Of a stretch of 40,851 bases of DNA, positions 9,371 to 29,232 are shown in pieces. Where the stretch lies: IMG/VR virus record IMGVR_UViG_2541047691_000017. The stretch is one strand, 5' to 3'. Source of the stretch: a virus. Lineage: Duplodnaviria > Heunggongvirae > Uroviricota > Caudoviricetes. Both the position numbers and the translations under genes were made by a program. Under the pieces are notes generated by a model. It was given only the letters and a program-made list of their open reading frames with translations, was not told the origin of the DNA and did not search any database. How positions within the stretch are numbered: position 1 is the first letter of the stretch; each line of letters begins with the position of its first letter.

Positions 9371-9393
9371 AAACAAGGCCGCGAAAGCGGCCT

Positions 9394-9405
9394 GTGACAT
9401 GTCAC
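9394..9405. repeat. Palindrome GTGACATGTCAC, copy 1 of 3
   Basis: Perfect 12-bp palindrome; its TCA is the stop codon (reverse strand TGA) of the 9402..9698 gene; preceded by hairpin GGCCGC-GAAA-GCGGCC. Confidence 0.7.
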
Positions 9406-9698
9406 GTCCCTTTTCTGAATGATAGCCATTCGAAAAATGATGACATTCCACCGCAGACAATAGCAAAGATGATCCCACCAAAGAAGAGAAGGCCAGCCTG
9501 CCACCACTCCCACCGCCATACATCCACAGCGCCAACCATACCAACAATCGCTCCAACAAATGGAATATAGCTCACGATGAAAGCAATGGGGGCTGCAATT
9601 ATCCAGTGCAATCCCCACCATGATTCAAGCCCAGCCATAATTGCTGCCAACTGAAAAAGACCAACGACGATATAAACAATGAATCCTATAGCTTGCAT
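9402..9698 (-). CDS. Small inner-membrane protein (3 TM helices), unknown function
   Basis: Start at ATG 9696-9698 with RBS AGGTGA; about 98 aa, almost entirely hydrophobic helices; convergent with the 9209 gene. Confidence 0.5.
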   Translation of the reverse strand: MQAIGFIVYIVVGLFQLAAIMAGLESWWGLHWIIAAPIAFIVSYIPFVGAIVGMVGAVDVWRWEWWQAGLLFFGGIIFAIVCGGMSSFFEWLSFRKGT

Positions 9699-9894
9699 GT
9701 AGTCACCTAATTTACCCAGTAAAAATAAGAGGCCTCCCCTCAATAAGGCTTGCAACAAGAACTACTCCCTGCACAACAAAGATGAACCAGCAAATAGCTT
9801 GAGTCTGAGGGTTAAGAAAATATTTGTAGCGGTCAATAAATAACAATCCACCAGAAATTATCACACTCAAAATAATTAAAAACACAACACTTCC

Positions 9895-12369
9895 TTATTG
9901 CGGAGTGACATCCTGTGGTCGCCACCAGTATGTCTGGTTAAACTCTTTCTTCGAACGTTGCTCCATTTTACGCAAATAACCTGGTGAAAAATACTCCTGC
10001 ATCTGGTTAAAGATCATGTGATCGAGAGCCGCCTTTAAGTACCAGAGATTCGCACCTGGCATCAGACCTTTCCCCAGCTTAACCAGATCACCACCAGTCT
10101 GCTCATTCTTCCCTTCCACAGCATTTAACGGTATGCCCTGAGCAATCTTCACTACGTCATCAACCAGACCAGCTACCGGGCCAAGCATCGACGCCAGCGC
10201 GCCGCTTCCGTACCTAGTGTGATCTGACAATAAAAAGTCACCGTAAAGGCCAAGACCACCACCTTTCAGTAGAGCACCAAGCCAAAATTTAGCAGCATCT
10301 TCTCCTGTCATCTCGCGAGGATTACGACCAGACGCAAGGTCGTTAAGTTGCTGCGACAAAGCGCCAAGAATGGTCGTACTGGCAATAAACGTCGCAATAT
10401 ATGCCGCACGCCCACCAGCCGACGGCATACCCATAGCGCGTGACCAGTGACGCATAACCACCGAGATAGGGAACGATTTAAACAGGAAAACACTTCTCGT
10501 TAATTCACCTTTCCATGTTCCACGCTGAATACCAGAACCGGTTATCAGTTGCTCACGTGCACCCGGTGTAATAACAGCCATATCAACTTCTTCAGTTACG
10601 GCACCGAGCAGTTTACGCATTGCCTCAAATTTCACGCGTTCAGGCTCACCAAGATGTTTAACTGCTGAATCAGGGATACGCATAATGCTTTCCGGTGTCA
10701 GCATCGTATTATTACCGTTCCCCCAGTCCTCCTGTTGCGCCAGCTTCCATACGCTCCAGTCTGTGTCAGTAATCCCTTTGCTTTTCAGGATACGAAAATC
10801 AGAATCATCGAGGCTACGAAGGTCTGGTGTCCGTGACACTACTTCTCCCAGGCTTCCCATCATGGTTACGCCATAGGCGCGCTTGTGCGCATCTGACCAT
10901 GCTGTAAGCCCACTGGCACGCATTACCACCGTTGCAGCCCAACGAGACACAGACGGCCCCATATTATCCATCGCCCAGCGGTTAACGCTGCCAAGTAGAG
11001 ATTCCATCGCCAGACCAGCGCGGCGCGCCCGCGCAAGTTCTGTACGGTTCGTTGGGTCCATAGCTTCAAGCTGGTTGCGGAATAACTGGTTCATTGGAAG
11101 GTTGGTAACCTTCGCAGACAGATACATGGTTCCAAGATCAGAGAACGATGACAGCAACGCGGATCCGAGTCTGCTGGCAACCAGCCAGTTGCGGATATTG
11201 TCAGACCATCGCGCGATGTGCGGATTCGCTACAGGCTGTGTCTTTCCGGAAATAAAGTTGTACAGATTCTCTGTGTTGTTCGCCAGCCGCTCGACTTTAC
11301 CGGTTTTACTCGGGTTAGCTGTTGCCGTTTCTGCCTTCACCTGATCAAGAAGAGAGCGGAAAACATGATCGGGGTTTGGGCCATATGTTTCCACCAGTGC
11401 AATATCTTTACTGATACCTTCCAGGTGACCGACCATGATTTCCCATAGAGAGCGATCGCCATAAAGTTGCTGATATTGCAGATAGGAATCTGCATCTTTG
11501 AAATGTATCTGTCGTGATGCATTACCCCGGTTAGCACGTGCGCCGGAAATTCGCATTCCGGTATCAGTAAGCTTATTCAGCCCACCAGTAGCGATCGTGT
11601 TATAAGCCTCTCCAAGAAATGCAGACAACTCGGCATCGTTCATCAGTTGTCCATCGACTCGGGTATAATATTTGCGATCCAGCTTACCTATAACATCGCT
11701 AACCCACTTATCCTTTGATACCGCCCCAACCTTTTCCATAGAATGATGTTGAGGGAGCCCCCAGTTTTCGAGATAGCCAATGTCCCCACCAGCATCATTA
11801 AACCGGCGGCGCAGTAGCTCTGTCACTTCTCTCCACGCCTTAGCACCTTTTCTTGCTTTAGCATTGCCAGTATTTTGCCCTCGCATTTCATATACCAGGT
11901 CACGCACGCCAGCTTCATCTTCAAACAGGCCAAAAAAGCGAGGATCAACTGCTTCAAATGCCTCCTGCAATTGACTCAATGCATAATCACGAGTGGCTTT
12001 TGTTCTGGATTCAACAGAGAGGAAATTCGATTTACCGTCTGCATTAAAAGCAATAGTACGGTTAAGAGCGCCAAGTTTCCCATCAGCCCCTTGATAGCTA
12101 TTGATAAATTTATCCAATCTCTGACGTGCGGCTATAGTGAGGGCCACACGACGTTTCTTTAATGCCGCTTCTCGCTGTAATTCTTCAGATGCCAATTGTG
12201 CTGCTCGATATAGCCGCTCTGATTCGGAAAGTTGTCGCCACGACATAGGGTCATCACGAGCAATGGAGCGCATATTTCGATAAATGCGGTCTTCAATGTT
12301 CTGTATTTCTCGCGCCGTTAACATGCGCTGCGCCGCCTGCTGAACCGCTTGTATACATTCCTGTCTCAT
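9895..12369 (-). CDS. Internal virion (ejection/core) protein, large
   Basis: 824 aa; last of a run of large co-oriented genes after the tail tubular genes, as with podovirus internal core proteins; no specific motif recognised. Confidence 0.55.
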   Translation of the reverse strand: MRQECIQAVQQAAQRMLTAREIQNIEDRIYRNMRSIARDDPMSWRQLSESERLYRAAQLASEELQREAALKKRRVALTIAARQRLDKFINSYQGADGKLGALNRTIAFNADGKSNFLSVESRTKATRDYALSQLQEAFEAVDPRFFGLFEDEAGVRDLVYEMRGQNTGNAKARKGAKAWREVTELLRRRFNDAGGDIGYLENWGLPQHHSMEKVGAVSKDKWVSDVIGKLDRKYYTRVDGQLMNDAELSAFLGEAYNTIATGGLNKLTDTGMRISGARANRGNASRQIHFKDADSYLQYQQLYGDRSLWEIMVGHLEGISKDIALVETYGPNPDHVFRSLLDQVKAETATANPSKTGKVERLANNTENLYNFISGKTQPVANPHIARWSDNIRNWLVASRLGSALLSSFSDLGTMYLSAKVTNLPMNQLFRNQLEAMDPTNRTELARARRAGLAMESLLGSVNRWAMDNMGPSVSRWAATVVMRASGLTAWSDAHKRAYGVTMMGSLGEVVSRTPDLRSLDDSDFRILKSKGITDTDWSVWKLAQQEDWGNGNNTMLTPESIMRIPDSAVKHLGEPERVKFEAMRKLLGAVTEEVDMAVITPGAREQLITGSGIQRGTWKGELTRSVFLFKSFPISVVMRHWSRAMGMPSAGGRAAYIATFIASTTILGALSQQLNDLASGRNPREMTGEDAAKFWLGALLKGGGLGLYGDFLLSDHTRYGSGALASMLGPVAGLVDDVVKIAQGIPLNAVEGKNEQTGGDLVKLGKGLMPGANLWYLKAALDHMIFNQMQEYFSPGYLRKMEQRSKKEFNQTYWWRPQDVTPQ

Positions 12370-12374
12370 TTAAT

Positions 12375-14177
12375 TTAACCTCTCAAGAAACACGCCACAG
12401 CGACATCAAACAGGCTGGAATCCTGTATTGCCTGCTCACTTTCCCTGTTCGCTTCATCCAGTGCTTCACGCGCACTGCGCGATTGTGGATTACCATCATC
12501 ATCCAGCACGGTGATTATCATGTCAGGTGATTCAAGCAGCGAGTCTTCAGCTATGCGCAGATCAATATCTCCTGCCGGATCTGCCATCATTTTTTGTTCT
12601 GTCTGTTGCAATATCTTACCGGGCTCAAAAGGAGCTACTTCTTCTGGCGTCCTGACCTCTGCTGTTTTATAGAATGAAACAGCCTGAGCATTAAGTTCAC
12701 TTTCTGCCTGCTGTCGTCGTGCCAGTTCTGCTCGAGCTTCAAAAAACTGACCTCCAGGCTCGTGCGGCGCCAACGCGTTACGAGAAAATTCCAGGCGTTC
12801 TTGTGCCTGCCGGATTCGTTGGTCAATATCGCGAAGTCTGGCCTGTTTATCTGATCGAGCACGAGATAAAGCCTTACCGCTACCGGTTGGCTCTTCTGCA
12901 AGAATTTGTGCGCGCTGTTCAGTGAGATTTTCAATAATTCGTTGGCTATTAGCGATTTCAGACTGGTAAACCTTTCTATCGCCACGCGACAAAAGCTGCG
13001 CGGCCTGTTCTTCAAGCAACCGATTTTCTATAGCGCGCGCCGTTACTCCATCATCTACAGATGACAGAGCCTCATTAACTGCCTGAGACAGCAGACTCTT
13101 GCGCCCAGGAATTTCACTGAAAGATGCAGACTCAACAATGCTGGCAACGTCTACAGGTCTCCCCTGGCTAACATCAGACATGGCTTTTCGCAGAGCCTGA
13201 ATGTGCGAATTACGCGAAAGCACGTTGATCGGAACGCCGGGAGCAATATCAATTTCAGCATGATGAGCGGCATTCGCCGCCAGTGCAGCATCAATATCAA
13301 CTGGTGAAAAATTTGGTGCGCTTGTAGACTCGCCGCGAGAGTTAATAAATCTGCCGACACCACCAAACGCCACCCCAAGAACAGCATCAATAGCAATTGC
13401 CTGTCGATCCAACACATCATACTGGTTAGCCATTTCGCTATAGCCACCATCACGAAGCGTTTTTGCAGTAAGCCCACGCTGTGCCATACCGAACGCAATA
13501 TTTGTACCTGCGGCATAGGCAATATCTGGCGTTGCACGTATTGCTGTTGCTGCGGCGCGTCGCACTGAACTTTCACCCGTCCGCGCAAGCTGAGCCGCCA
13601 CACCTTCCGCCAGCGCACCACCAGCACGTAACCCGAGGCTCATAGGGATCAGTGTTCCGGCACCAGCAGTAATACCCTGCACTAATCCCGCTTCCTGCGC
13701 CGTCCTGAAATCAACACCCTGTGCTGTCAACCGTTCAAACTCAGAAAAACCCTGTAGAGAAGTTACCGCCGCAGCACCTCCGACCGGACCACCGAGCGTT
13801 GTACCGACAACAGCCTGCCCGCCCATATCGAACAACCCATAAAGGACCTGCCCGGCGGTTCCGGTTGTCGCGGCATCAGGCGTCAGCCGCTTAACCTGCT
13901 GCTCTGCTAGTTTTCTCTGCTCAGCAATGTATGAAACTGAAGTGTCATTGAGCGAGGTGTTTTCGTTAACAAGCTGAGCAATCGGGGATACGATTTTATC
14001 CATCCCTGCCCATAGCAACTGATCTGGCTTTGCCACCAGCCCGGAGTACAAACCAGACAATGCCGCTCCTACAGCATTGTCGAAAAAACCAACATCGCTG
14101 TTAAAGCCAACTGGATTTGATGCTGCTTCGTCAAGCTGCTGATTCTGGTTTACTGGATTAAGGCCAAAGTAACTCAT
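12375..14177 (-). CDS. Internal virion (ejection/core) protein
   Basis: 600 aa, Gly/Ala-rich segments; position in the structural operon. Confidence 0.5.
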   Translation of the reverse strand: MSYFGLNPVNQNQQLDEAASNPVGFNSDVGFFDNAVGAALSGLYSGLVAKPDQLLWAGMDKIVSPIAQLVNENTSLNDTSVSYIAEQRKLAEQQVKRLTPDAATTGTAGQVLYGLFDMGGQAVVGTTLGGPVGGAAAVTSLQGFSEFERLTAQGVDFRTAQEAGLVQGITAGAGTLIPMSLGLRAGGALAEGVAAQLARTGESSVRRAAATAIRATPDIAYAAGTNIAFGMAQRGLTAKTLRDGGYSEMANQYDVLDRQAIAIDAVLGVAFGGVGRFINSRGESTSAPNFSPVDIDAALAANAAHHAEIDIAPGVPINVLSRNSHIQALRKAMSDVSQGRPVDVASIVESASFSEIPGRKSLLSQAVNEALSSVDDGVTARAIENRLLEEQAAQLLSRGDRKVYQSEIANSQRIIENLTEQRAQILAEEPTGSGKALSRARSDKQARLRDIDQRIRQAQERLEFSRNALAPHEPGGQFFEARAELARRQQAESELNAQAVSFYKTAEVRTPEEVAPFEPGKILQQTEQKMMADPAGDIDLRIAEDSLLESPDMIITVLDDDGNPQSRSAREALDEANRESEQAIQDSSLFDVAVACFLRG

Positions 14178-16687
14178 TGCGGAATATCTCCGGAGAATCT
14201 CTGACGCTTCTGTGTCAGATCAAGAACAACGGGAGAACCATCATCTTTTAGCAGATAACCAGTACCAAGTTTCACCAGGTACTGACTATCGCCGTAACTT
14301 TGCAAACCATACTGACCAGGCGGTGTTTTTATCCCTGTGCCAACAACTTGTTCATTCCAAGCCTGATTAACCTGCTTATCGAATTGCTCTGCAGACATTC
14401 CCCACGGCAAAAGAACATTCCCCATTCCGTTATAGTCATGCACGCCACCTGTAGCTACGTTAACAGCCTGTTTCCAGATATCATTGTCAATTTCGCCTGA
14501 TACCACGCCTTTTTTCGCCATCACACCAGCGTAATAGTCCTTTGCGATCTCGTATGCCATTGATGCCCCCTGAGCATCACCAGCAAATGCATTCTTCACC
14601 ATGTCAGAAAACTCAAGGCGAAGATCAGCATCTTTAGGCATCGGAATACCTTTCGCGTCATCAGTACCTTTACGAGCCGCCGCGCCAGCAAGAATTGTCT
14701 GCGCAGCGGTTTCTGGAGACACGGAAACATCCGGATTAAACCAGTTTTTTTCTGCCAAAATACCACCTGGCTTATCCATCAGTATCCCGGCAACGGCAGC
14801 AGATGGAGCGTTGGCACTGATCTGCTGTAGTGCTGACATATACACCTGCCCACCACCAGTGCTCTGCCTGATGGTATCGAGATATGCTGCCTGTTGGGAA
14901 ACGGGCGCATCACGAAAGAAAACACCGATCTGATTGGCCTCGTCTTTGGAAAAGAACGTCAGTGGAGTGCCATATGACTTAGCAAGGTCACTGACCTGAG
15001 CAGCACGCAAGGCAACGCTCTGTCCAAAGTTATCCTTATTGCTCATGTCGATAGGCTTTGCCTGTCCGGCGGCAAGAGAGAACTGTACAGGATCAGCCTG
15101 TCGCTGCTTTATCACCTGACTTGCAGCCGACACAACGTTGTCATAAAGAGCGGCTCGTGCCGCATAACCCTCCCCTGTCTCACCAGTATCCGGGCGTAAT
15201 TGCTCAACATATGCTGTAATGCTGCTTGTCGGCATGTTGCGGAAAGAGCCTATATACTGTCCGGCGATTTGCGTATTTCTGAACTCGGTATATCGCAGGT
15301 TTCCTTCTCTTACTCCATAAGCTGCAATAAAATCAGCCTCACCAGGTGGGTTAGGAAATTCAACGCCACGCATATACGCAGCTGTCGCATCGCGAACCTG
15401 GCTGTCAATCATCGTTTTATATTCAGCCTGCTGCTGCCGACGCAGTTGATCCGCCTGTCGCATAAAACTTGCCTGCGCCTCAGGAGATGCCGCATCGAAT
15501 GCTGCATTACCGGTATAGCGTTTGGTGTTGGTTGGAATTGTTGATAAACCAAGTGCTGCACTGACACCAGCAGTTAACTGCTGATCACTGTATGGCTGGC
15601 TACCGTTCTCATGATGGATAATGGCTGCACAAAGCGCCTTCAGGGTATCAGGATTAGATGCATCGAGAGGCTCATCAGCAGAAACGCCAAGTTGTTCGCA
15701 CACTGCTTTGATATACGACATAGTGTCATTTTTATCAGTAGGCGGTGCCCAGCGATTAATTATCTCGCTGACGGTATCAATACCCTGCCTCTGATACGAC
15801 ATCAGGTTCCGCCCTAATGCACGAATCCCGTGTTCAGGTGTTTCGAATTTAGCAAATCGACCATCATCACCGGTCTGGCCTACCCACGGATTAGTTTTGC
15901 TGTATTCGAGATTTCCTGGGTTATTGTTGCGTATGCCACGGGCACGCTCGGAAGAGTCACTATCTGCTACAGCACGGCGAGCTCCAGCAGCAGTATCACT
16001 TAACTCGCCATTACTTTGGATGAATGCGGTCGCATTGTTTGCCGACCACTGGGACAATGCAGCATCAGCAACCTTCTCTTTAAACTCGATTTTCTTGGCC
16101 TGGATTTGCTCGTCACTCCAGCCATGTGCAATGCCGTAATCCTCAATTTGCTGGAAAGTTTGCTTATTAGCCAATACGTATGCGGCGTTGTCGCCATACA
16201 ATGCTGCGGCATTTTTACCATTGTTCAGCAGCGTAGCCTGAAACTGGCCTTCTTCGTAGGCATTTATTTGCCCTATCTCGTGCCGCCCGGCCTGCGTAGT
16301 GAACTGAATGCGCTGCTGCTGCGCCTGCTGCATGAAAGCATTACGAGCCTGTTCATCCGGCAGCGACATAGCCAGTTGTTCGACCTGAGCATCAAACTGC
16401 TGCGTATACTCCTGACCTTTTCCAATAGCATTTTTCCCTTTCAGGTTAAGCAATCCTGTTTCAGGATTATTCAGCAGATCACTGCTTATCTGACTGAGGT
16501 TAAGAGATGCCTCCTGAGCCAGAGCGATATTGGCACGCTGTTTTGCCTGCCCCAAAACATCAATTGCCTCTGTCCCTGCCCGAACAAAAGCATCACCAAT
16601 ACCTGGCTGAGAAAACGTCTGCAAGCCTGCTGACTGAACTCCACGGCTCTGAACCTGACGGCCGGATACTGTTGGTACGACTGGCAT
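14174..16687 (-). CDS. Internal virion protein, possibly with a cell-wall-degrading domain
   Basis: Start placed at ATG 16685-16687 (MPVVPT..., RBS GGAGG) overlapping the upstream stop; contains motif IRNNNPGNLEY that I tentatively associate with virion-associated muralytic domains (memory only). Confidence 0.5.
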   Translation of the reverse strand: MPVVPTVSGRQVQSRGVQSAGLQTFSQPGIGDAFVRAGTEAIDVLGQAKQRANIALAQEASLNLSQISSDLLNNPETGLLNLKGKNAIGKGQEYTQQFDAQVEQLAMSLPDEQARNAFMQQAQQQRIQFTTQAGRHEIGQINAYEEGQFQATLLNNGKNAAALYGDNAAYVLANKQTFQQIEDYGIAHGWSDEQIQAKKIEFKEKVADAALSQWSANNATAFIQSNGELSDTAAGARRAVADSDSSERARGIRNNNPGNLEYSKTNPWVGQTGDDGRFAKFETPEHGIRALGRNLMSYQRQGIDTVSEIINRWAPPTDKNDTMSYIKAVCEQLGVSADEPLDASNPDTLKALCAAIIHHENGSQPYSDQQLTAGVSAALGLSTIPTNTKRYTGNAAFDAASPEAQASFMRQADQLRRQQQAEYKTMIDSQVRDATAAYMRGVEFPNPPGEADFIAAYGVREGNLRYTEFRNTQIAGQYIGSFRNMPTSSITAYVEQLRPDTGETGEGYAARAALYDNVVSAASQVIKQRQADPVQFSLAAGQAKPIDMSNKDNFGQSVALRAAQVSDLAKSYGTPLTFFSKDEANQIGVFFRDAPVSQQAAYLDTIRQSTGGGQVYMSALQQISANAPSAAVAGILMDKPGGILAEKNWFNPDVSVSPETAAQTILAGAAARKGTDDAKGIPMPKDADLRLEFSDMVKNAFAGDAQGASMAYEIAKDYYAGVMAKKGVVSGEIDNDIWKQAVNVATGGVHDYNGMGNVLLPWGMSAEQFDKQVNQAWNEQVVGTGIKTPPGQYGLQSYGDSQYLVKLGTGYLLKDDGSPVVLDLTQKRQRFSGDIPQ

Positions 16688-17232
16688 TATAATCCTCCGG
16701 GTAATCTGGTTCCTGCTGCTGCCCCGATTGGCGCAGGGGTGCTTTGAGTAAACGGACTCCACGTCCCACCAAACATCTGGTACGCACCGTATGCCTTCAG
16801 AGGCGCAGTGAGCAATGTTGTTGCTGCTCCCACATTCCCCTGTTTACGGGCTGAACTGGCTTCTGCTTTATAGTTGGCAGCCTGAACCTGATAACCGTAA
16901 GCCTCGCGTTGCGCGTTATTCACCGTCGTCAGAGAATCAAGAGCGCCAAACTGGGCAGTGTCGCCAAATATATCCAGCGCGTTACCTGTAGATAAATCAG
17001 CGCCGGTAGCCCCCATTGTCGCCGCCTGTGTACCAAGCCGCTGTCGGGTCTCTCTGCGCCGTTGCTCAGCTTCAGCGTTACCTCTGTTTATTGCATCATT
17101 TGCCTGAGCTGTGGCTATATCTGCGTTCGCTTCTGCAACCTTCGAGGCATACTTTCCCTGTTGGTACTGGGTGTATGCCTGAATGCCACTCATGGCGAGC
17201 ATTGCGCCACCAGCAATAACCGGATCGCACAT
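16687..17232 (-). CDS. Small internal virion protein (gp14-like position)
   Basis: 181 aa, Ala/Gln-rich; lies between the tail tubular B gene region and the large internal proteins. Confidence 0.45.
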   Translation of the reverse strand: MCDPVIAGGAMLAMSGIQAYTQYQQGKYASKVAEANADIATAQANDAINRGNAEAEQRRRETRQRLGTQAATMGATGADLSTGNALDIFGDTAQFGALDSLTTVNNAQREAYGYQVQAANYKAEASSARKQGNVGAATTLLTAPLKAYGAYQMFGGTWSPFTQSTPAPIGAAAGTRLPGGL

Positions 17233-21101: not shown

Positions 21102-21145
21102 TCCTGCAATAAAGGGGCCGAAGCCCCTTGTCTGATCCGCGAGGC

Positions 21146-21481
21146 TTACACGCCCAGTTCTTTACGCTTATCTGCGATCTTCTCGCGGAGCGTTTCGGCT
21201 TTGGCGTTATGGTGTGGCTTCTCGTTAAAGAGCAATTCGTACTCTTCACGGAGCTTATCCAGTTCACCATCATCTGACACATCGTTGATGATTTTGGTGC
21301 TGGTTGCTGCCATTGACACCTTTCCTGCAACTTTTGCTTTTGCCTGTCTGGCTGCATCGTTAACAGGTTCCAGTGCGCTACCAGGCTCACCTTCGTATTC
21401 GATTTCTGCCCCCTCCGGCCACAGAGTGTTATGGATATGAGAGAGGCGCAGAACGCGGTATCTTGGTTTCTCACCTGACAT
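21146..21481 (-). CDS. Hypothetical protein in structural operon
   Basis: Start at ATG 21479-21481 (MSGEKPRYRV...) with RBS AAGGTGA; charged C-terminal helix. Confidence 0.4.
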   Translation of the reverse strand: MSGEKPRYRVLRLSHIHNTLWPEGAEIEYEGEPGSALEPVNDAARQAKAKVAGKVSMAATSTKIINDVSDDGELDKLREEYELLFNEKPHHNAKAETLREKIADKRKELGV

Positions 21482-21491
21482 CGATATCACC

Positions 21492-21929
21492 TTAACCAGT
21501 TACTTTTGAACGGATCGGATACGGCGTATTGGCATCAACATCAAGACTGATACCCGCAGTGAATTCGCCAGCCGTTAGTGGGCCAGTTGCGACGGAGTAG
21601 TTAACACGCAGATATCGCTGAACACCGGCAGGCACCTTTGCAGAAACAACTCGTTTACCTGCTGTCAGGGCGGTCTTTGCCAGTGCACCACTATCATAAA
21701 TAGTGGTCCATGAGCTGTTATTCTCACTCGTCTGCAACTGGATGTTTACAGTTGCCTCACCACTTGCCGTGGCGGCTTCGTTAACCAGCACCCAAAACTC
21801 AAGCGGGTAACCCACGCCGATATCACGACGTTTTCCGTCAATTGGACCGAGATCGATTACGTCAGTAGAAGCCGCGGTATTCGTAACCGCCTGAGCTTCG
21901 GAGAACATCAACAGTTTGTCGGTGATCAT
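21492..21929 (-). CDS. Hypothetical capsid-associated protein (possible decoration/Ig-like protein)
   Basis: 145 aa directly downstream of the major capsid gene; RBS GGAG; Thr/Ala/Val-rich beta-type composition. Confidence 0.4.
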   Translation of the reverse strand: MITDKLLMFSEAQAVTNTAASTDVIDLGPIDGKRRDIGVGYPLEFWVLVNEAATASGEATVNIQLQTSENNSSWTTIYDSGALAKTALTAGKRVVSAKVPAGVQRYLRVNYSVATGPLTAGEFTAGISLDVDANTPYPIRSKVTG

Positions 21930-21980
21930 CTTCTTTCTCCATTAGTGGGTCTGTTACGACCCACAGGTTAATAACAGGCG

Positions 21981-22973
21981 TTACACCACGCGGGCTTCTG
22001 TTTCCAGAAGCGCATCAGTTTCACGGATTGGTACACCACGGAATGAAGTCCACCACTCGCCTTCAGTCTCTTTTACGCTGATAGCCAGAGATGTTTTCTC
22101 CAGAGACTGCAGATCAAGAGCCTGGCCTACAGTGCGGTTCATGTAGAACACCGGGCGGCCCATGCCACGGTTTGGAATGCGATGTAGTGCTTTAACCATC
22201 AACTTCGCAATATTTGCGGCAGAGGAAGGTTCTGAAAGATTGCTGACATCGATATTTGCAATGCGAACAACATAACGCCAGTCACGCAGAGCAAGTCCGT
22301 TGTCCCATTTGTAATGGGTGCGATAGCCTTCGTACTTGCCGCCATTAGCATCTTCCAGTGTCACCTGGCCTTTATCTTCCATCTGGATGCCAGCCTTCTG
22401 CCCTTTCGGGAAGATGCCATGCACGGTGTTTTCGCCCCACACCACTAACCAGATTGAGGTGTTATCTGTACCCGTGCCACCAGCATCAATGATGTTCTGA
22501 GCATTACCCGCAGACAGGCTGGAATAGCGGGAGGACAGTCCCATAAACTGCTGAGGATTAACGCTGGAATCACCATAAAACAGCGTCTGCGCCATCTGCT
22601 GATTCATCGCTTCAATAAATGCGCGGTCTTCAGAAAGGCGGAATTCGGCGGTATTGCCGTTCAGATCAGCCAGTGACTTATCGACTTCCGCATAGGTTTC
22701 CAGCATGCCAACGGAATCGGTTACCTGCACTGTGGTTGATTTGCTTGGCTGTACGCCATAGTTCAGCAAACGCCAGGTAGCTGAAGGTAAACCAGAACGA
22801 ATGGTGGTTCGGTGTCCGGTAGGAAGGTTCCCTTCGACAAAAGGCATATCCTGAAGGATCGGGTTAGTTTGACCGAGAAGCTCGATAATCTTATCGACTT
22901 TCCCGTTTGGATCGACGCGCTTACCCCAGTCAGCCAGCGTTAGCGCAGTTAAGCCTTTAACAGCCATTGTCAT
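21981..22973 (-). CDS. Major capsid protein
   Basis: 330 aa; follows the scaffold gene and precedes the tail tubular genes; size typical for podovirus HK97-fold capsid proteins. Assignment by position and size. Confidence 0.7.
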   Translation of the reverse strand: MTMAVKGLTALTLADWGKRVDPNGKVDKIIELLGQTNPILQDMPFVEGNLPTGHRTTIRSGLPSATWRLLNYGVQPSKSTTVQVTDSVGMLETYAEVDKSLADLNGNTAEFRLSEDRAFIEAMNQQMAQTLFYGDSSVNPQQFMGLSSRYSSLSAGNAQNIIDAGGTGTDNTSIWLVVWGENTVHGIFPKGQKAGIQMEDKGQVTLEDANGGKYEGYRTHYKWDNGLALRDWRYVVRIANIDVSNLSEPSSAANIAKLMVKALHRIPNRGMGRPVFYMNRTVGQALDLQSLEKTSLAISVKETEGEWWTSFRGVPIRETDALLETEARVV

Positions 22974-22981
22974 TTCCTCTC

Positions 22982-23683
22982 TTATTTGCCATAGAGCACT
23001 TCGGCCGCACTACGCTGGCCTTCATTACCACCGGTGACCATGCCATCTTCAGACATCGCCTTTCCGATTTTCACGAACGTTTTGACCAGATCAGGGTGAT
23101 TACCCAGCCCGGTGGTGTTCAGATATTCTTTGAGCTCAGGTGTCCCGAACTGGTCAAGCGCACGCTGTGCGGCGCTAAGGTTAGAAATCAACTTGTCGCC
23201 ACCGATTTCTTTGTCAGCTTTTACATCCGCAGCCCACTGCTCGGTTGTTTTCTGCCAGGCTTCTGCCTGGCGCTGCTGAACACCTGCCAGAATCTTCGGA
23301 TAAGCATCAACCAGCTTTTGCGCTTGCTCGTTGGTCAGGTTAAGTTCTCGCGCCACAGGCTCGAATTCCTTCAACGCTTCTGTATCCAGCTCTACGCCTT
23401 CGGCAGCCTGAAACTCGTACTTCTCAGGCGCACCCTCTGGTTTATCGCCGTCCTTTTTTTCATCCTGCTTATCGTTTTCAGGCTTTTTGTCATCAGCAGG
23501 TTTATCGCCATCAGCAACAGGTTGTGGCTTATCACCTTCCGATTGTGATGGATCACCAACTGGAGCAGGGTTATCACCTGCAGGCGCTGACGGTTCTGAC
23601 GCAGCCGGAGCTGCTCCACCATCGACTGGTTGCTCATTGCAAAGACGGCGATACAGCAAACGCTCAAATAAATTCATGATCAC
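22982..23683 (-). CDS. Scaffolding protein
   Basis: 233 aa, highly acidic with Pro/Ala/Asp/Lys low-complexity N-terminal half and helical C-terminal half; between portal and capsid genes. Confidence 0.6.
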   Translation of the reverse strand: MIMNLFERLLYRRLCNEQPVDGGAAPAASEPSAPAGDNPAPVGDPSQSEGDKPQPVADGDKPADDKKPENDKQDEKKDGDKPEGAPEKYEFQAAEGVELDTEALKEFEPVARELNLTNEQAQKLVDAYPKILAGVQQRQAEAWQKTTEQWAADVKADKEIGGDKLISNLSAAQRALDQFGTPELKEYLNTTGLGNHPDLVKTFVKIGKAMSEDGMVTGGNEGQRSAAEVLYGK

Positions 23684-23976
23684 TCCTGTTCACTGGCCTC
23701 TTTGGCCATCTTCAAATACTGTTCAGGGCAATGCGCCATAACGCGCTGAAACAGTTCCAGCGCCAGATTGCGTTGCCCCTCATTAAATGCCATTGCCATA
23801 GCATCCATCGGAGAGATAGCGGAAAACACCCGGCCTTTCTCCAGCACCGACCAGACAACGCGACGCCCCTGTTCACTGCTCATGACAAAGCGAATGTCAT
23901 CAATTTCACGCTGTGCCATGTCACGTTGCTTACGGGCGTTTTCTTCTTTCAGTTGATCGTCTTCGTAATCTGTCAT
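23680..23976 (-). CDS. Hypothetical small protein between portal and scaffold
   Basis: 98 aa; overlapping stop/start with both neighbours. Confidence 0.4.
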   Translation of the reverse strand: MTDYEDDQLKEENARKQRDMAQREIDDIRFVMSSEQGRRVVWSVLEKGRVFSAISPMDAMAMAFNEGQRNLALELFQRVMAHCPEQYLKMAKEASEQE

Positions 23977-25652
23977 TGTGATTGCCCACCCTGACCACTA
24001 ACTGCATTCGCCATAGCTGACAAAACACTCGGATCCGAAGTTTTAGCTTCGCTTAGCGTCTTGGCACCCTGTGCCGCCGCCATCCCCATCGCCATCATTT
24101 GTTGCTGCTGTTGTTGCTGTGCCCGTTGCTGGCGAGCCTGCTCAACCTGTTCCTGCGGAACAATGACGGTTGGAGACACTCCGGACATATCAGCGAATGC
24201 ATCGATCGCCTGATCAACGTTGAGTTTGTCGAGAGCTTCTGGTTTCGCTTGCGCAAGTTGACCAATGAAGTTAACCGTGGACGCCAGACTGGACAGGCCG
24301 ATAGACTTCTGCGCCTGAGCCATGACGGAAATGTATTCGACCTTCAGGGGCATACCTTCCATCACGTCTGGCGGTGGCGGCAGCATGTTTTTACGCACCA
24401 TCATCGAGAAAGAGCGGTCAATGAGAGGATTAAGACATTCGTCGTTCAGACGCTCCAGAACCGGCCCCAACATCAGAAGTTTTTCTTCTTTCATTTCGAT
24501 CACCGCTTCAACAGGCATCGAGCGGGTATTGATGTTCTGCAACATCATGAACAGATCGACAAAGTAGGCGCTGTTAATGATTTGACGAGTGTCCTGAATG
24601 TCTGCCACCAAATCTGCTGTACTGGGGTTAACCAGATAAGCAGGCCTGAAACCATCCTGACCAGTAATCTGATCGATATACGTGATGTCGCCAGGAAGAA
24701 GGGAGGCACGCTGATTCTTGAGGGAAGTCGGAGCAACCATCGGCGGATTGGTGGCTTTATCAATCAACTGCGACTTGCGCTTCTGGAGAAGCTGCAATGC
24801 CTTAACAGGTCCAAGCGCCAGCATACCCGGGCATGATGATCCATAAACATCTTCGCCGTTAACTTCCCAGCGCGGAGCCATAATTGGAAACTCATCGAAT
24901 CCGGACTCACGCAACAACTTGTCGTTATCGCCACCAACCTCGTAATAAACCGATTTGAATGGCTTGTTCTTGCTATCCAGCTTCGATGTATCGCGGTCAA
25001 TGTTCGGGTAAACCGAATGCATCACTTCAATCCACTTCTCGTAGGTGCCGCTTTCCCACATGCTTTTTACGGATTCGCTGACGTTATTTAGCCCGAACTC
25101 CTGAACAAGCTGACGAACAGTCATAGAGAACTTGCGAAAACAGGTGTCCACACTGCCACGAGGTGAGTTAGCCAGGTAGTAACTGCCTATCGGGAATGGC
25201 ATTGTGCGAATGATGTCCTCGTCATCCTCCAGCACTGCCATTGCACCAGTGCTGTATGTGCCGAGGCTTCCGTATAACTGCGGAAGAGACTGGTAGAGAT
25301 TCGACTTATTGAACATATCGTTCATGCGGTTCTGCACCACCTCAAGCCACAACTTAACAGGGCCATAATCCATCATTTCAGGATCTGGCGTAGCCAGGCG
25401 AAACCACGGACGCGCGGGGCTTGTGATGCCTGACATCATGCCGCTGGCGAGAGTGCGCGCCGCCATAGTCCCGGTCGAATCAATAATACGTGTATTGCGT
25501 CGATCGTTACGGTTTACCTCAGAAGTCAGAAAGCGGGAACCACGCGGGTTGATGTAATCACTCAACTCGCGCCAGTGCGGCTCGAACGACTGACGCTCGC
25601 TTTCAAGTTGTGCGAACTGTTTGTTCAATCGCTCTTTAGTTGTTTCCGCCAT
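23973..25652 (-). CDS. Portal (head-to-tail connector) protein
   Basis: 559 aa; RBS GGAG; Gln/Ala-rich C-terminal tail; placed after terminase and before scaffold/capsid. Confidence 0.75.
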   Translation of the reverse strand: MAETTKERLNKQFAQLESERQSFEPHWRELSDYINPRGSRFLTSEVNRNDRRNTRIIDSTGTMAARTLASGMMSGITSPARPWFRLATPDPEMMDYGPVKLWLEVVQNRMNDMFNKSNLYQSLPQLYGSLGTYSTGAMAVLEDDEDIIRTMPFPIGSYYLANSPRGSVDTCFRKFSMTVRQLVQEFGLNNVSESVKSMWESGTYEKWIEVMHSVYPNIDRDTSKLDSKNKPFKSVYYEVGGDNDKLLRESGFDEFPIMAPRWEVNGEDVYGSSCPGMLALGPVKALQLLQKRKSQLIDKATNPPMVAPTSLKNQRASLLPGDITYIDQITGQDGFRPAYLVNPSTADLVADIQDTRQIINSAYFVDLFMMLQNINTRSMPVEAVIEMKEEKLLMLGPVLERLNDECLNPLIDRSFSMMVRKNMLPPPPDVMEGMPLKVEYISVMAQAQKSIGLSSLASTVNFIGQLAQAKPEALDKLNVDQAIDAFADMSGVSPTVIVPQEQVEQARQQRAQQQQQQQMMAMGMAAAQGAKTLSEAKTSDPSVLSAMANAVSGQGGQSQ

Positions 25653-25666
25653 TTCAATGACTCCGG

Positions 25667-25873
25667 TTACTGACCAAGTAGCGTTTTACCGCTGGTATTA
25701 GCGGTTGATGTGTCGCCCTGAGAACCGGTAAGCAGCGTAGAACTACGACCAGCAGCAGCGCGACGGCGACGAGTTTCTTCGTCGCGGGCATCAACAACGG
25801 CGGCATCCTGCTCCTGTGGTGCTGCCTGAACTTCTGGTGTTGCAGGCACTGATGGTGAGCTACCCATGCACAT
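25667..25873 (-). CDS. Small hypothetical protein upstream of portal
   Basis: 68 aa, Ala/Thr/Gln-rich; stop 15 nt before the portal RBS. Confidence 0.3.
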   Translation of the reverse strand: MCMGSSPSVPATPEVQAAPQEQDAAVVDARDEETRRRRAAAGRSSTLLTGSQGDTSTANTSGKTLLGQ

Positions 25874-25941
25874 ATCAATGACTCCGTACGCAATTAAATT
25901 ATTACCAATTTAACCACATGTGATTTATTTATCGTAGATAC

Positions 25942-25978
25942 TTGACATTTAACGCACTAATTATTACCTTTCAGGTAA
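25942..25978 (+). promoter_or_regulatory. Putative promoter (-35 TTGACA) with downstream operator-like palindrome TTACC-TTTCA-GGTAA (25964..25978)
   Basis: TTGACA at 25942-25947; palindrome identical to the 6617 site; no clean -10 hexamer at standard spacing, so promoter strength is uncertain. Confidence 0.45.
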
Positions 25979-26300
25979 GCAAAGAGTTCATTCCGGTTAT
26001 TAACCTGACTGGCTTGTCGTTAAATTGAACAGGTGGGGTGAGCTTTTATTTTGAGCAGTACGGTGTATGGCACATGCGCCGATAGCGGTCTGGATACGTT
26101 TAAGGGGCACCCTCCCTTGCTATGGCAAACGAACCAGGTAGCCGGAATGTGCAAGTCGAGCGGTTTTATTCCGCGCACGGGGATTCACCATCCCGGCGAT
26201 TCGGTGTGACACCTCGGAAGAGACGAGGGTGCAACGATGAGAGCATTTATGGAGCCGCGACAAAGTGTGGTGCCTTAACAGGCTAAGTGCTCTCAGCGTT

Positions 26301-26377
26301 GTGGCATTAGCTCAGTTGGACAGAGCAACCGCCTTCTAAGCGGTTGGTCGCAGGTTCGAATCCTGCATGCCACGCCA
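26301..26377 (+). tRNA. tRNA-Arg (anticodon UCU), argU-like
   Basis: 77 nt folded by hand: 7-bp acceptor stem GTGGCAT/ATGCCAC, D-arm GCTC/GAGC, anticodon stem ACCGC/GCGGT with loop CTTCTAA (anticodon TCT), T-arm GCAGG-TTCGAAT-CCTGC, encoded CCA. Confidence 0.9.
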
Positions 26378-26420
26378 GAATCACGCCTAAGGACCGTGAT
26401 GCCAGAAGTTCCAGGGGCTT

Positions 26421-26463
26421 GGCGGTGATGGTTTCCCTTGAAGGACTATCACCGCCATTTTTA
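26421..26463 (+). terminator. Intrinsic terminator downstream of tRNA-Arg
   Basis: Stem GGCGGTGAT...ATCACCGCC followed by ATTTTTA. Confidence 0.55.
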
Positions 26464-26540
26464 CAGCAGGACGCCATTGCGATGACTTCATGCTGTAAAC
26501 CAGTACAGCCACGGGAGGCATAACTCATTGCCTCCAGTTC

Positions 26541-26563
26541 GCCCGGTTCGCCGGGCATTTTTT
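26541..26563 (+). terminator. Hairpin plus T-run (terminator or attenuator) just before the Gp49-like gene
   Basis: Stem GCCCGG/CCGGGC, loop TTCG, then ATTTTTT; lies 17 nt upstream of the RBS of the 26580 gene. Confidence 0.45.
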
Positions 26564-26579
26564 AAGGTGAGAATAGACT

Positions 26580-26951
26580 ATGAGTGACAAAGACATTGAA
26601 TCTGAAATTCAGGCTAAAGGTTTAGCCGCGCCGCGCGTTACGCCAGACCATATCGAGAGCATTATTGCTCAGGAGGCATATTTCACAGCAGAAGATGGTG
26701 TCTTTGGCGTGGCCATAAAAGCGAAACATACTGGCGGAGAGGTAAACTACCAGCCGAACGAATCACTTTCTCTGCTGACGTTCTGCGTTCTGGTGCTGCG
26801 CAACGGCTTCACCGTCACCGGAGAGAGCGCCTGTGCAAGCCCAGAAAACTTTGATGCGGAAATTGGTCGGAAGATTGCCCGGCAGAATGCTGTAAACAAA
26901 ATCTGGATGCTTGAAGGTTACTTGCTGAAGCAGAAGTTAAGCGAGCAATAA
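26580..26951 (+). CDS. Gp49-like phage protein of unknown function
   Basis: 123 aa; RBS AAGGTGAG; resembles the small Gp49-like family seen as accessory genes in enterobacterial phages (memory only). Confidence 0.5.
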   Translation: MSDKDIESEIQAKGLAAPRVTPDHIESIIAQEAYFTAEDGVFGVAIKAKHTGGEVNYQPNESLSLLTFCVLVLRNGFTVTGESACASPENFDAEIGRKIARQNAVNKIWMLEGYLLKQKLSEQ

Positions 26952-26955
26952 CACC

Positions 26956-26967
26956 GTGACATGTCAC
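26956..26967. repeat. Palindrome GTGACATGTCAC, copy 2 of 3 (14-mer CGTGACATGTCACA)
   Basis: Perfect palindrome 5 nt after the stop of the 26580 gene; same 14-mer as at 29220..29233. Confidence 0.7.
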
Positions 26968-26972
26968 AAACA

Positions 26973-26998
26973 GCCAGCCGATGAGCTGGCTTTGTTTT
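26973..26998. terminator. Terminator between convergent Gp49-like gene and large terminase
   Basis: Stem GCCAGC/GCTGGC, 6-nt loop, then TTTGTTTT on the plus strand. Confidence 0.5.
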
Positions 26999-27041
26999 AT
27001 CCTCACCAGAGGATATCTCCGTCATTATCCCCGCTAACGGA

Positions 27042-28517
27042 TTAAGCATAGGGATCGTAATCTGTAATGGCCTTGCCTTGCTGGTTCTGCTGCCCGGGAA
27101 TTCGCAGGCGCTTTGACACCGGGAACGCAAACGTCAGCAGTAGCGCATCGCCTTTACCAGGAGAACGCCCAAGCCGCTCCTTGATATCTTCCTTCGGTTC
27201 GATAACGATTTTACCGTCCACTCGAACTTTGTACTCTGCCGCCGACAGGTCGTCCGCTGTTTCCTGGTCATCAAGCATGCCGCCCAGCCTCAGCCATGTC
27301 TTGCATGAGTTGAACATCTCCCCACGCTTGTTGAGCATCTGCTGGTCAGTAGACGCGCCACCGAACGGAACAAGTTGCCATGTACGACCCCAGCCGTCAC
27401 CGATTGACTTCAAACCGGTTCCGTAACCGAAGTCGATGAACACCGCGTCAGCCTGATACTGGTCTTCAAAGTCAGCGATACGCTTCGCCATAATCAGATC
27501 GTCGGTAGTCTTGTTGCCAGTCCACAGCACCTTACTGTGTAGCCCCTGCCGCAGGTATATCACAGCGTCATCAACGCCGGAGTATGCCGGGTCAACGCCG
27601 ATTATCACCGGAGCATGTGCCACCTGCGCAGCAGTTACCACCCGTTTCATTGCCTCGTCAGTAAGACCGGTAGGGATAAACTGCAATTCAGATGCATCAG
27701 GGAATATGCCACGCACACGGATTTTAACGAAGTCGCTATCTTCCCCGTAGTCATCAACCCATTTCTGCAACTGCTGTTTGTTGGTGCCTTCCACCGTCCT
27801 GCTGTCAATCTGCGCAGTTTTCCAGCGGTGTTTGTATTTGCGGAAACATTCACGGAAACGCCCGGTGTTACGTGTAGGGTTTCCGAAAGCCACCCAGATA
27901 ATCTCAGTGTCTTCGTCCGTTAGCGCACCCTCGGCAACTTCCCACACCAGATCCGCAATGTTCGACGCTTCATCAAATACCACGATGATGCGTTTACGCT
28001 CGTTGTGTAGTCCGGCGAATGCCTCAGTGTTGTGCTCAGACCAGGGGATTGCGTCAGCTCGCCACCGCTTGTCGTGCCCAGGGTCATTGCTGTACATCGC
28101 GGTAGCGGTACAGGTAAACCAGTCTTTCGTGATAGCAAGGTTTGACCACTTGATAATTTCCGGCCAGGTCTTCGTTCGTAGCTGGTTGTCGGTGTTGGCG
28201 GTCACCACGACCTTACAATCCTCGCAAGTGGACATGCCCCAGTTGATCAGCATTGAGATGAATGCGGATTTACCAATACCGTGACCAGAAGCACGTGCCA
28301 GCATAAGCGGCTGATATCGCGTCTCTGGATTCTGCAGGTGATCACGTATCTCTCGGAACGCATCGGCCTGCCACTGACGTGGACCGGTGGCATGTGCCAG
28401 TTCAGTACCCTCTTCCCCCCACGGGAACGCATAGAGGGCATAGCCAAGCGGATCGTGAGTGAACCCTGCAATATCCTCGATTAACTGCTCTTCAGGAGAT
28501 AACGCTGTATCTGTCAC
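27042..28517 (-). CDS. Terminase large subunit
   Basis: 491 aa; Walker A-like motif (ARASGHGIGKS) in the N-terminal ATPase region; overlaps the small-subunit gene. Confidence 0.85.
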   Translation of the reverse strand: MTDTALSPEEQLIEDIAGFTHDPLGYALYAFPWGEEGTELAHATGPRQWQADAFREIRDHLQNPETRYQPLMLARASGHGIGKSAFISMLINWGMSTCEDCKVVVTANTDNQLRTKTWPEIIKWSNLAITKDWFTCTATAMYSNDPGHDKRWRADAIPWSEHNTEAFAGLHNERKRIIVVFDEASNIADLVWEVAEGALTDEDTEIIWVAFGNPTRNTGRFRECFRKYKHRWKTAQIDSRTVEGTNKQQLQKWVDDYGEDSDFVKIRVRGIFPDASELQFIPTGLTDEAMKRVVTAAQVAHAPVIIGVDPAYSGVDDAVIYLRQGLHSKVLWTGNKTTDDLIMAKRIADFEDQYQADAVFIDFGYGTGLKSIGDGWGRTWQLVPFGGASTDQQMLNKRGEMFNSCKTWLRLGGMLDDQETADDLSAAEYKVRVDGKIVIEPKEDIKERLGRSPGKGDALLLTFAFPVSKRLRIPGQQNQQGKAITDYDPYA

Positions 28518-29110
28518 TGATTGCCATCCTGACGTTCTTTCAGTCTCTTCCTGGCTGCCGCTATGCGATCAGCAATTGTCACATTCACATTAACATCCAG
28601 GCGTTCTTTGAATGCGTTGACGTCGACGTGCTTACCAATCAGTTCGAGGTTCTTCACCTTGTCAGGCCATTTAATTTTTTTGAGGATTGTCTCTATCGAA
28701 TCCTCGTTCATGTTCATGATGGTCGATGACAGATCAAAGCCGCTAAGCGTAGTGCGCCAGATTTTCGGCCACTCTCGGATTGGCTTAAGGCTACCATCGT
28801 CGTTGAGGATGTCGATCACGTCCATCTGGTCGATCTCCACCAAGCGCATGAGAACGTAATCAGCACTGACGCGCATTCGTTTGTTGCGCTCCTCCATCAA
28901 CTCGGCAATCCGTTTTTGAATGCGTTCATCGCGCATCATGACACTGGCTTTAACTGCCGCTGTATTTGGGGAGAATCCTGCGTTAATCGCTGCCTGAGTC
29001 TGGTTTTCAGGCGTTTTGATGTATGACTGGCAATAAGCCTCCTGCATTGCTGTTAGTGGCTTAAATTGCGTTGATTTGCGTTTATAGGCTTTAGGTTCAG
29101 CAGGCATCAT
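28514..29110 (-). CDS. Terminase small subunit
   Basis: Immediately upstream of and overlapping the large subunit; start set at the MMPAEPK methionine (29108-29110), could extend to 29188; basic N-terminal region. Confidence 0.6.
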   Translation of the reverse strand: MMPAEPKAYKRKSTQFKPLTAMQEAYCQSYIKTPENQTQAAINAGFSPNTAAVKASVMMRDERIQKRIAELMEERNKRMRVSADYVLMRLVEIDQMDVIDILNDDGSLKPIREWPKIWRTTLSGFDLSSTIMNMNEDSIETILKKIKWPDKVKNLELIGKHVDVNAFKERLDVNVNVTIADRIAAARKRLKERQDGNQ

Positions 29111-29220
29111 AACCACCGTGGTAATAGTTACCGTTGTGGTAATAGTACCATGCAAAATAAAGCCGCCATAGTTGGCGGCAGTATTCAAACCCCATCAAAT
29201 TCATCATGCATAATCTACTC

Positions 29221-29232
29221 GTGACATGTCAC
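29221..29232. repeat. Palindrome GTGACATGTCAC, copy 3 of 3 (14-mer CGTGACATGTCACA)
   Basis: Perfect palindrome; its TCA (29229-29231) is the stop codon of the 29229..29570 gene. Confidence 0.7.

Follow-up and report, generated by a model that had tools for sequence, protein, structure and literature searches.

Why should a perfect 12-bp palindrome, GTGACATGTCAC, recur at gene 3′ ends in one phage genome, and what would recognize it there? The window, the whole 40,851-nt stretch of DNA that was analyzed, is an E. coli prophage of the epsilon15-like (Uetakevirus) type and contains exactly three exact copies at 9394–9405, 26956–26967 and 29221–29232 (sites C, B and A, respectively). A sequence-only reading had called these copies perfect and beyond chance; all three are exact at those positions, and none of 100 dinucleotide-preserving shuffles of the window contained GTGACATGTCAC. 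The sole further window copy at up to two mismatches is an intragenic GTGCCATGTCAC at 23913, and the half-sites alone are not enriched. The 14-mer CGTGACATGTCACA, which had been noted for sites B and A, is in fact common to all three, lying on the opposite strand at 9394. By chance alone, GTGAC-NN-GTCAC should turn up only about 0.02 times in 20 kb.

Site A overlaps the TGA stop codon of a minus-strand gene (29229–29567; stop at 29229–29231) and lies upstream of the terS leader. The gene encodes a 112-residue candidate binder of PHROG 536, the epsilon15 gp49/N15 gp46 family, hereafter the gp49-like protein. An intrinsic terminator on the minus strand, GCCGCCAACTATGGCGGC followed by a T-run (29162–29179), lies 41 nt beyond site A when read toward the late genes, and the epsilon15 record annotates the same hairpin. 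The minus-strand terS-terL unit (27042–29188) is bracketed by sites A and B. Its terS start at 29188, taken from RefSeq-style annotation, is probably placed too far upstream; a TTACC-N5-GGTAA palindrome (29128–29142), of a type annotated as repressor operator in epsilon15, is located just upstream of the probable start.

Site B lies between convergent terL and a plus-strand gene of the Gp49/Sf6-gp66 family (26580–26951), beginning 4 nt after the TAA codon of the latter. It is 4 nt from a bidirectional terminator hairpin (26972–26991) that separates it from the terL end and is annotated as a terminator in phiV10; in the late direction the palindrome comes after this hairpin, not before. Site C overlaps the TGA stop codon (9402–9404) of the gene that closes the head-tail operon (9402–9698, minus strand; PHROG 3075) and directly abuts a minus-strand intrinsic terminator, AGGCCGCTTTCGCGGCCT then TTGTTTTT (9376–9393), annotated in phiV10 and epsilon15. 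Terminators adjoin all three sites. The two TCA stop codons on the minus strand, the copy just past a plus-strand stop and the bracketing of terS-terL had all been read from the letters, correctly in each case. Identity with the repressor operator of the epsilon15-like group was rejected, that operator being (A)TTACC-N4/5-GGTAA(T), a distinct palindrome that occurs 10 times in the window; each late unit has one such palindrome upstream.

In nine Uetakevirus genomes, representing four host genera (E. coli, Salmonella, Enterobacter and Klebsiella), the 12-mer occupies the same orthologous places, not all three in every genome: the gp49-like stop codon ahead of terS, the terminator that follows terL, and the point where the head-tail operon ends. 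Site A is found in 9/9 genomes (with one mismatch in phiV10), site B in 8/9 and site C in 8/9, Kp4865-1 retaining only a half-site at the last; the flanks are only ~72–82% identical, or unrelated. A search of related phages, proposed with the original observation, hence finds the orthologous places occupied in those examined. Among close IMG/VR relatives, site A is exact in 75 of 80 and site B in 55 of 76, with one mismatch in 8 more, and the early-region DNA of the 80 relatives (666 kb) contains no copy at up to one mismatch. The order gene, site, terminator, terS is the same in epsilon15 and Tyrion, and a close relative of the prophage is present in 278 of 5,426 complete E. coli genomes.

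The palindrome is also linked to the gp49-like gene outside this group. In 25 of 34 diverse gp49 homologues, down to ~50% identity, GTGAC-NN-GTCAC lies no more than 4 nt from the stop codon, with GTGACnnGTCAC at −4 to +4 nt of the stop; the 25 include N15-like telomere phages and integrase-linked elements of Pantoea and Xenorhabdus. The nine homologues with no site that close to the stop are mostly at or below 51% identity, and at least one counted among them, L205, has a perfect copy just past its stop. In the reverse direction, of 119 IMG/VR stretches containing the 14-mer, 39 have it at a homologue's 3′ end, and in another 22 it falls in Uetakevirus late regions; elsewhere the site, mostly accompanied by a hairpin, stands ahead of co-directional terS-terL or xis-int genes. 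N15 itself carries GTGACTGGTCAC three times, once at the stop codon of gp46, once within repA and once where the repA operon ends; these three TG-centered copies may be mere inheritance. One N15-like phage has three AT-centered copies, one of them at the orthologous repA position. The hosts found are E. coli, Salmonella, Klebsiella, Enterobacter, Pantoea, Xenorhabdus, Yersinia and Serratia, and the gene–site pair is common to at least three unrelated temperate groups: epsilon15-like podophages, N15-like telomere phages and integrase-linked islands. Because the palindrome travels with this gene across unrelated phages, it is most likely the gp49-like protein's own binding site; the comparative evidence thereby singles out the same Cys-rich protein, encoded at 29229, that the sequence-only reading had named as candidate binder.

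Could the palindrome instead be a functionless boundary sequence, bound by nothing and kept by module-shuffling recombination between copies? Breakpoints do coincide with sites: position 26956 is precisely where the HEMP4 alignment begins, phiV10 and Tyrion have just a 40–57 bp island in common around site C, Kp4865-1 breaks off within site C, and after site A the sequence diverges 2 nt beyond the palindrome in three lineages. However, 12 bp is too short to stay perfect through recombination alone at 20–28% divergence, the equally mosaic early region lacks any copy in its 666 kb, copies in repA and virion genes are kept at orthologous codons, and the linkage to one gene family would be left unexplained. 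We therefore consider this reading improbable. The breakpoints are more likely a consequence of a conserved island beside variable moron DNA than the function of the site, so that the earlier idea of a module junction holds for the homology breakpoints at or inside the sites and is less likely as an account of what the sites do. A physical genome end or pac site was likewise rejected, as the phiV10 record, which opens inside copy A, simply starts after the last stop codon, and cos phages also carry the site, far from any terminase gene. In practice, the 12-mer is an annotation landmark for operon ends and mosaic joints in epsilon15-like prophages.

The gp49-like protein models as a ribbon-helix-helix (RHH) fold followed at the C-terminus by a TraR-like C4 zinc finger. 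The model contains the β-strand and the two dimerizing helices of an RHH protein, preceded by a nearly invariant, Arg/Lys-rich N-terminal basic helix, AERKAAQRARQ. Its best structural match, a weak one, is MatP, and RHH proteins give weak profile matches to the family. As judged by hhalign against E. coli MatP (probability 0.8%), there is no detectable sequence homology; the MatP query was confirmed authentic, and the MatP homologues retrieved were E. coli copies only. None of 57 family members matched the MatP domains PF06303 and PF17414 at E ≤ 1. A PDB profile search returned marginal matches to TraR (E 0.034) and YbiI (E 0.045), hhalign against TraR/DksA gave a probability of 50% with a different cysteine spacing, and one family member matched the NCBIfam TraR model (E 0.032). 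The family has no Pfam hit, zf-dskA_traR included, and a BFVD fold search returned nothing informative.

What the sites conserve bears on whether DNA or RNA is recognized. The arms GTGAC and GTCAC are invariant, the center is free (AT, AC, AG, CG, CT, GT or TG), and all of the more than 60 sites have a 2-bp spacer. Single-mismatch variants are one-sided and never compensated, over dozens of independent loci. Taken together, the invariant arms, free center and lack of compensation fit a dimeric protein site and not an RNA helix. A co-variation of the center with the protein's β-strand was unsupported, nearly identical proteins having AT, AC, CT or GT centers. An RNA element, namely a 3′ UTR hairpin that the gp49-like protein would recognize through its Arg-rich N-terminus (compare boxB–N) for antitermination, processing or mRNA stability, would be in keeping with that basic helix and with the transcription of all three window copies between stop codon and terminator. 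Nevertheless, it appears unlikely: the hairpin would have very little stability (−1.2 to −2.8 kcal/mol), compensating arm changes are missing, and the predicted fold is of a duplex-DNA binder type.

A host protein is the other candidate reader of such a site. The literature consensus of matS, GTGAC[AG]N[TC]GTCAC (GTGACRNYGTCAC), is 13 bp with a 3-bp spacer; its half-sites, GTGACA and TGTCAC, are identical to those of the phage site, and both combine conserved arms with a degenerate center. The sites could then be bound as matS-like elements by MatP of the host Ter macrodomain, or by another host factor, organizing the prophage or the replicating phage DNA, and every host found falls within the enteric group in which MatP occurs (PMC7188993). 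Against this, the spacer is always 2 bp, no true N3 matS is present in the window, nine phage genomes or 27 genomic loci, matS is reportedly avoided in prophages (literature), and a host factor would leave the tie to one phage gene's stop codon across unrelated phages unexplained. We give this explanation a small probability. Recognition by a sequence-specific enzyme (a phage or host methyltransferase, restriction enzyme or homing nuclease) is most improbable, since the CATG and ACATGT within the palindrome and the MT-A70 methyltransferase gene of the prophage (38274–38936) are offset by a 10–12 bp specificity with three targets per genome that is unlike known methyltransferases, by a central CATG that is not conserved in relatives, and by the lack of any nuclease gene linked to the site.

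Based on the gene–site linkage and the fold class, on which the assignment of the binder rests, we favor with moderate confidence the view that GTGAC-NN-GTCAC is the cognate site of the gp49-like protein at operon boundaries, where it would direct RNA polymerase. A protein-binding site is thus the best supported of the three options first raised for the palindrome (module junction, binding site, enzyme target), binding being deduced from that linkage and fold. One RHH dimer would occupy each palindrome, reading the two 5-bp arms and not the central 2 bp. In epsilon15-like phages the three sites lie where three transcription units end, and each has an intrinsic terminator beside it: (i) the early-right operon, with the gp49-like gene last, (ii) the terS-terL unit and (iii) the head-tail operon. 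The bound protein may then decide the fate of RNA polymerase at these boundaries, most likely as a gate that lets the polymerase continue beyond the early operon and transcribe the packaging and late genes. The logic would be Q-like, with a regulator encoded by the last early gene acting in cis on a site right past its own stop codon.

Read-through into the late genes is probably gated by the gp49-like protein at its operators; it is nearly as probable that the protein acts as a roadblock or insulator. In N15-like phages, two sites are intragenic and lack a neighboring terminator, and the gp49/gp46 family gene is accompanied by a distinct Q gene (PF06323); a late-gene gate can therefore not be the general role. 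Read-through may not even be needed in the window, as each late unit has its own repressor-type palindrome upstream. The surroundings of site A contain no convincing promoter or sigma-dependent pause element: the promoter-like match (9/12, with GTGACA as −35) is no better than in shuffles and, on sequence inspection, is not conserved in epsilon15 or BUCT711. Tentatively, and at low confidence, the gp49/gp46 family may represent a new class of DNA-site-loaded transcription elongation regulator, with an RHH dimer on the operon-end palindrome, a TraR-like zinc finger docking RNA polymerase, and the adjacent terminator switched off or on. If this is true, it would be the missing early-to-late switch of epsilon15-like phages. 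The literature searched (12-mer, epsilon15 gp49, N15 gp46, Uetakevirus transcription) yielded no description of the gene–site pair and no account of late-gene activation in epsilon15-like prophages; the outcome is a protein and site pair open to experiment.

Several known systems resemble parts of this pair. The CRP consensus is TGTGA-N6-TCACA and that of LexA is CTGT-N8-ACAG; a CRP site was rejected because the TGTGA/TCACA halves are spaced N4 in the phage site, a LexA site because the CTG/CAG ends are missing in two of the three copies, and FNR or SlmA sites because spacing or key bases do not fit. The SlmA site, GTGAGTACTCAC, is likewise palindromic, has the same length of 12 bp and agrees in the outer four bases, but differs at positions 5 and 8, which are conserved in sites of this TetR-family protein. 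RHH regulators (Arc, Mnt, CopG, YbfE and the ParD/MazE antitoxins) share the predicted fold and a short palindromic target; their operators, however, normally overlap the promoter of their own operon, whereas the gp49-like site is at the gene 3′ end and at operon ends, and the gp49-like protein has an additional zinc finger. With TraR/DksA, which bind the RNA polymerase secondary channel, a helix followed by the CxxCG..(I/L)P..C zinc-finger motif can be aligned. The similarity is marginal, the fourth cysteine lies elsewhere in the gp49-like protein, the aligned helix doubles as helix B of its RHH core, and TraR, unlike the gp49-like model, has no DNA-binding domain.

In arrangement, the closest parallels are lambdoid Q with its QBE/qut site and Pseudomonas AlpA, where the product of the last early-operon gene antiterminates late transcription. 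Shared features are a last early gene, a DNA site immediately downstream, then an intrinsic terminator and the late genes (in the window: gene end at 29229, site A at 29221–29232, terminator at 29162–29179, terS next), and a small zinc-carrying protein, zinc being predicted for the gp49-like one. Nonetheless, the gp49-like protein has no homology to Q families (no Pfam match), its site is not set in a recognizable promoter with a pause element, and of its three sites two lie between convergent units. In terms of the site itself, MatP/matS comes nearest, differing by a spacer of 3 bp instead of 2 bp, by MatP's four-helix bundle and coiled coil in place of a C4 zinc finger, and by the constant presence of one phage site where the gene of the protein itself ends. 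This near-identity raises the question of whether one spacer base separates a phage system from the system that organizes the host chromosome.

The palindrome GTGACATGTCAC, built of two 5-bp arms around a 2-bp centre (GTGAC-NN-GTCAC), occurs exactly three times in the window, at 9394, 26956 and 29221, and in 0/100 dinucleotide-preserving shuffles, which bears out the three perfect copies and negligible chance occurrence claimed in the sequence-only reading; the stop-codon relations given there were all correct on re-check. A 14-mer, CGTGACATGTCACA, is common to all three copies, with the 9394 copy carrying it on the opposite strand. A search of the window at up to two mismatches adds one intragenic near-copy, GTGCCATGTCAC at 23913-23924, which has one mismatch, lies within a gp5-like gene and is kept in relatives as coding sequence; with one arm broken, this copy is unlikely to be functional.

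The window represents an epsilon15-like prophage (genus Uetakevirus) integrated in E. coli between yfgI and guaA, its late genes on the minus strand; when 5,426 complete E. coli genomes were surveyed, 278 had a close relative. Every copy marks the 3' end of a transcription unit, with an intrinsic terminator next to it. Site A (29221-29232) spans the TGA of the last gene of the early-right operon (29567 to 29229, minus strand), which encodes a 112-aa protein, and is followed by a terminator 41 nt on (29179-29162), a repressor-type palindrome (29128-29142) and the minus-strand terS-terL pair (about 29120 to 27042). Site B (26956-26967) lies 4 nt from a bidirectional hairpin between terL and a convergent plus-strand moron gene of the Gp49/Sf6-gp66 family (26580-26951). 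Between this moron and the minus-strand head-tail operon is a plus-strand tRNA-Arg gene (anticodon TCT, 26301-26377); the operon runs down to 9402, where site C (9394-9405) spans the TGA of its last gene and abuts a terminator at 9393-9376. Plus-strand morons including an AntA antirepressor follow, with tailspike and lysis genes beyond; an MT-A70 family adenine methyltransferase gene (38274-38936) lies near the integrase end. RefSeq-style annotation of relatives starts terS at a TTG at 29188; with that start, terS would contain both an intrinsic terminator and the repressor palindrome (29120-29188). The gene probably begins downstream of 29128, in line with the curated epsilon15 record.

The motif, which the sequence-only reading had proposed to seek in related phages, is found at orthologous places across Uetakevirus genomes and is thus not absent from relatives. 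In phiV10, epsilon15, Tyrion, HEMP4 and a New Zealand E. coli prophage, a perfect 12-mer stands at all three places; PAT1, BUCT711 and Kp4865-1 keep the pattern with minor losses: site A is present in 9/9 genomes (phiV10 with one mismatch), site B in 8/9 (missing from BUCT711; AG centre in PAT1) and site C in 8/9 (a half-site alone in Kp4865-1). The DNA around these sites is 72-82% identical at most, and is otherwise unrelated. Among close IMG/VR relatives, exact copies stand at site A in 75 of 80 and at site B in 55 of 76; the early regions of the 80 relatives, 666 kb in all, contain no copy at up to one mismatch, and half-sites alone are not enriched. Both Klebsiella Uetakeviruses have a perfect copy within their gp13-like internal virion protein gene (26462 in BUCT711, 24674 in Kp4865-1), and each is without one intergenic copy, B and C, respectively. 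In the curated epsilon15 record the annotated sites are those for repressor, IHF, RNase III and integrase, and the palindrome is not among them; a full-text literature search for the 12-mer gave no match.

The 112-aa protein is a member of PHROG 536 and of no Pfam family; exhaustive searching with HMMER recovered no more than 151 cluster representatives. We inspected diverse family members in their own genomes for a site near the stop codon, and found that gene and site form a conserved cassette: GTGACnnGTCAC lies at -4 to +4 nt of the stop in 25 of 34 loci (Citrobacter, Klebsiella, Enterobacter, Pantoea, Erwinia, Xenorhabdus, Serratia and others), where chance would give about 0.02 such sites per 20 kb. 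The arms are invariant; the centre is AT, AC, AG, CG, CT, GT or TG, and shows no relation to protein sequence across these loci. GTGACATGTCAC directly follows the stop of a homologue with 55% identity to the window protein (loci L169/L170), while GTGACCGGTCAC and GTGACCTGTCAC span the stop in homologues with 57% (L174) and 61% identity (L168, an integrase-linked element). In an N15-like telomere phage with TelK, RepA, Cro and Q (L177/L178; 53% identity), the 12-mer spans the stop and recurs twice, once within repA; in N15 itself GTGACTGGTCAC spans the stop of gp46, and lies also at the orthologous repA position and again at the end of the repA operon. Each thus has three copies of its own variant (N15: 28550, 33237 and 39269, TG centre; L177: 2073, 6647 and 10339, AT centre), with the repA copy 623 nt into the gene in both. 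Most homologues at 51% identity or less are without the site. Conversely, of 119 IMG/VR stretches with the 14-mer, 39 carry it at the 3' end of a homologue and a further 22 fall in Uetakevirus late regions. Five unrelated viral contigs (L226, L245, L255, L274 and L312) hold the full 12-mer amid dense, iteron-like GTGAC/GTCAC half-site arrays, which a related DNA-binding protein may recognise.

The AlphaFold2 model of the 112-aa protein is confident (pLDDT 92.7; 57-sequence alignment) and predicts a ribbon-helix-helix (RHH) type protein, with a basic, nearly invariant N-terminal helix (AERKAAQRARQ), an extended segment, two helices and a Cys-rich C-terminal knot. The family has weak RHH matches (YbfE, RHH_5), and likeness of the second helix and cysteines to the TraR/DksA zinc finger recurs across searches (PDB profile search, E 0.034; hhalign, probability 50%, E 1.6e-4; an NCBIfam TraR match for one member). 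The protein is predicted to join an RHH fold to a zinc finger, an unusual combination.

Linkage to one gene and the predicted fold of its product favour the protein-binding site suggested from sequence alone, with binding itself a prediction. We infer that a dimer of the 112-aa protein binds the palindrome and would act on transcription at operon boundaries, the pair constituting a small phage regulator with its own operator. An operator at the 3' end of the regulator's own gene is unusual, and the literature searched gave no prior description of the pair. We favour a gate that would allow read-through past the boundary, since (i) the regulator is the last early gene, (ii) the site directly follows its stop codon, suited to cis action, and (iii) in independent contexts co-directional terS-terL or xis-int genes come after the site, usually with a hairpin. 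Cis action of this kind is known from lambda Q. Speculatively, the factor, while bound to DNA, could use a TraR-like module to contact an arriving polymerase on its downstream face.

Against such a gate, in the late direction site B comes only after the hairpin, site A was found to have neither a promoter nor a pause element, and N15-like phages already have Q, with two of their sites intragenic. Each late unit also has its own upstream repressor-type palindrome: TTACC-N5-GGTAA, annotated as repressor binding sites in the epsilon15 record, occurs ten times in the window (6617, 6997, 8000, 25964, 29128, 32003, 32065, 34396, 35108 and 35170; 0.03 expected), and one copy precedes each of terS, the gp3-like gene and the tailspike, which suggests that the prophage repressor acts directly on late units. 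This leaves the read-through gate only slightly more plausible than a roadblock or insulator acting at convergent junctions. Upstream of the tailspike, the moron region includes a perfect LexA box (ACTGTATAAATATACAGT, 6670-6687) close to the AntA/AntB antirepressor gene (7283-7933); the pair has the look of an antirepression module under SOS control, such as that described for SPC32H.

A role of the palindrome in RNA is unlikely, as the folding energy of its hairpin is only -1.2 to -2.8 kcal/mol and dozens of loci show no compensatory changes. The module junction proposed earlier has real breakpoints behind it, in that HEMP4 homology begins at precisely 26956, phiV10 and Tyrion have in common only an island of 40-57 bp around site C, and Kp4865-1 retains a half-site remnant; a pure recombination joint would nevertheless account neither for the perfect conservation nor for the linkage to one gene, and we give it little credence. 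The suggested recognition sequence for a sequence-specific enzyme found no support.

The putative operator closely resembles matS, the target of E. coli MatP, which is itself unusual. The phage site matches the published consensus, GTGAC[AG]N[TC]GTCAC, in its 6-bp halves, and likewise has conserved arms and a free centre; unlike matS, it has no central base and its 2-bp spacer is invariant, which speaks against binding by host MatP and makes that reading improbable. The site is accordingly not a matS, nor is the protein a MatP, to which sequence methods revealed no homology. The phage genomes examined contain no true matS, in agreement with its reported avoidance in prophages, so that the likeness, of conserved arms around a free centre, is to MatP's mode of reading DNA.
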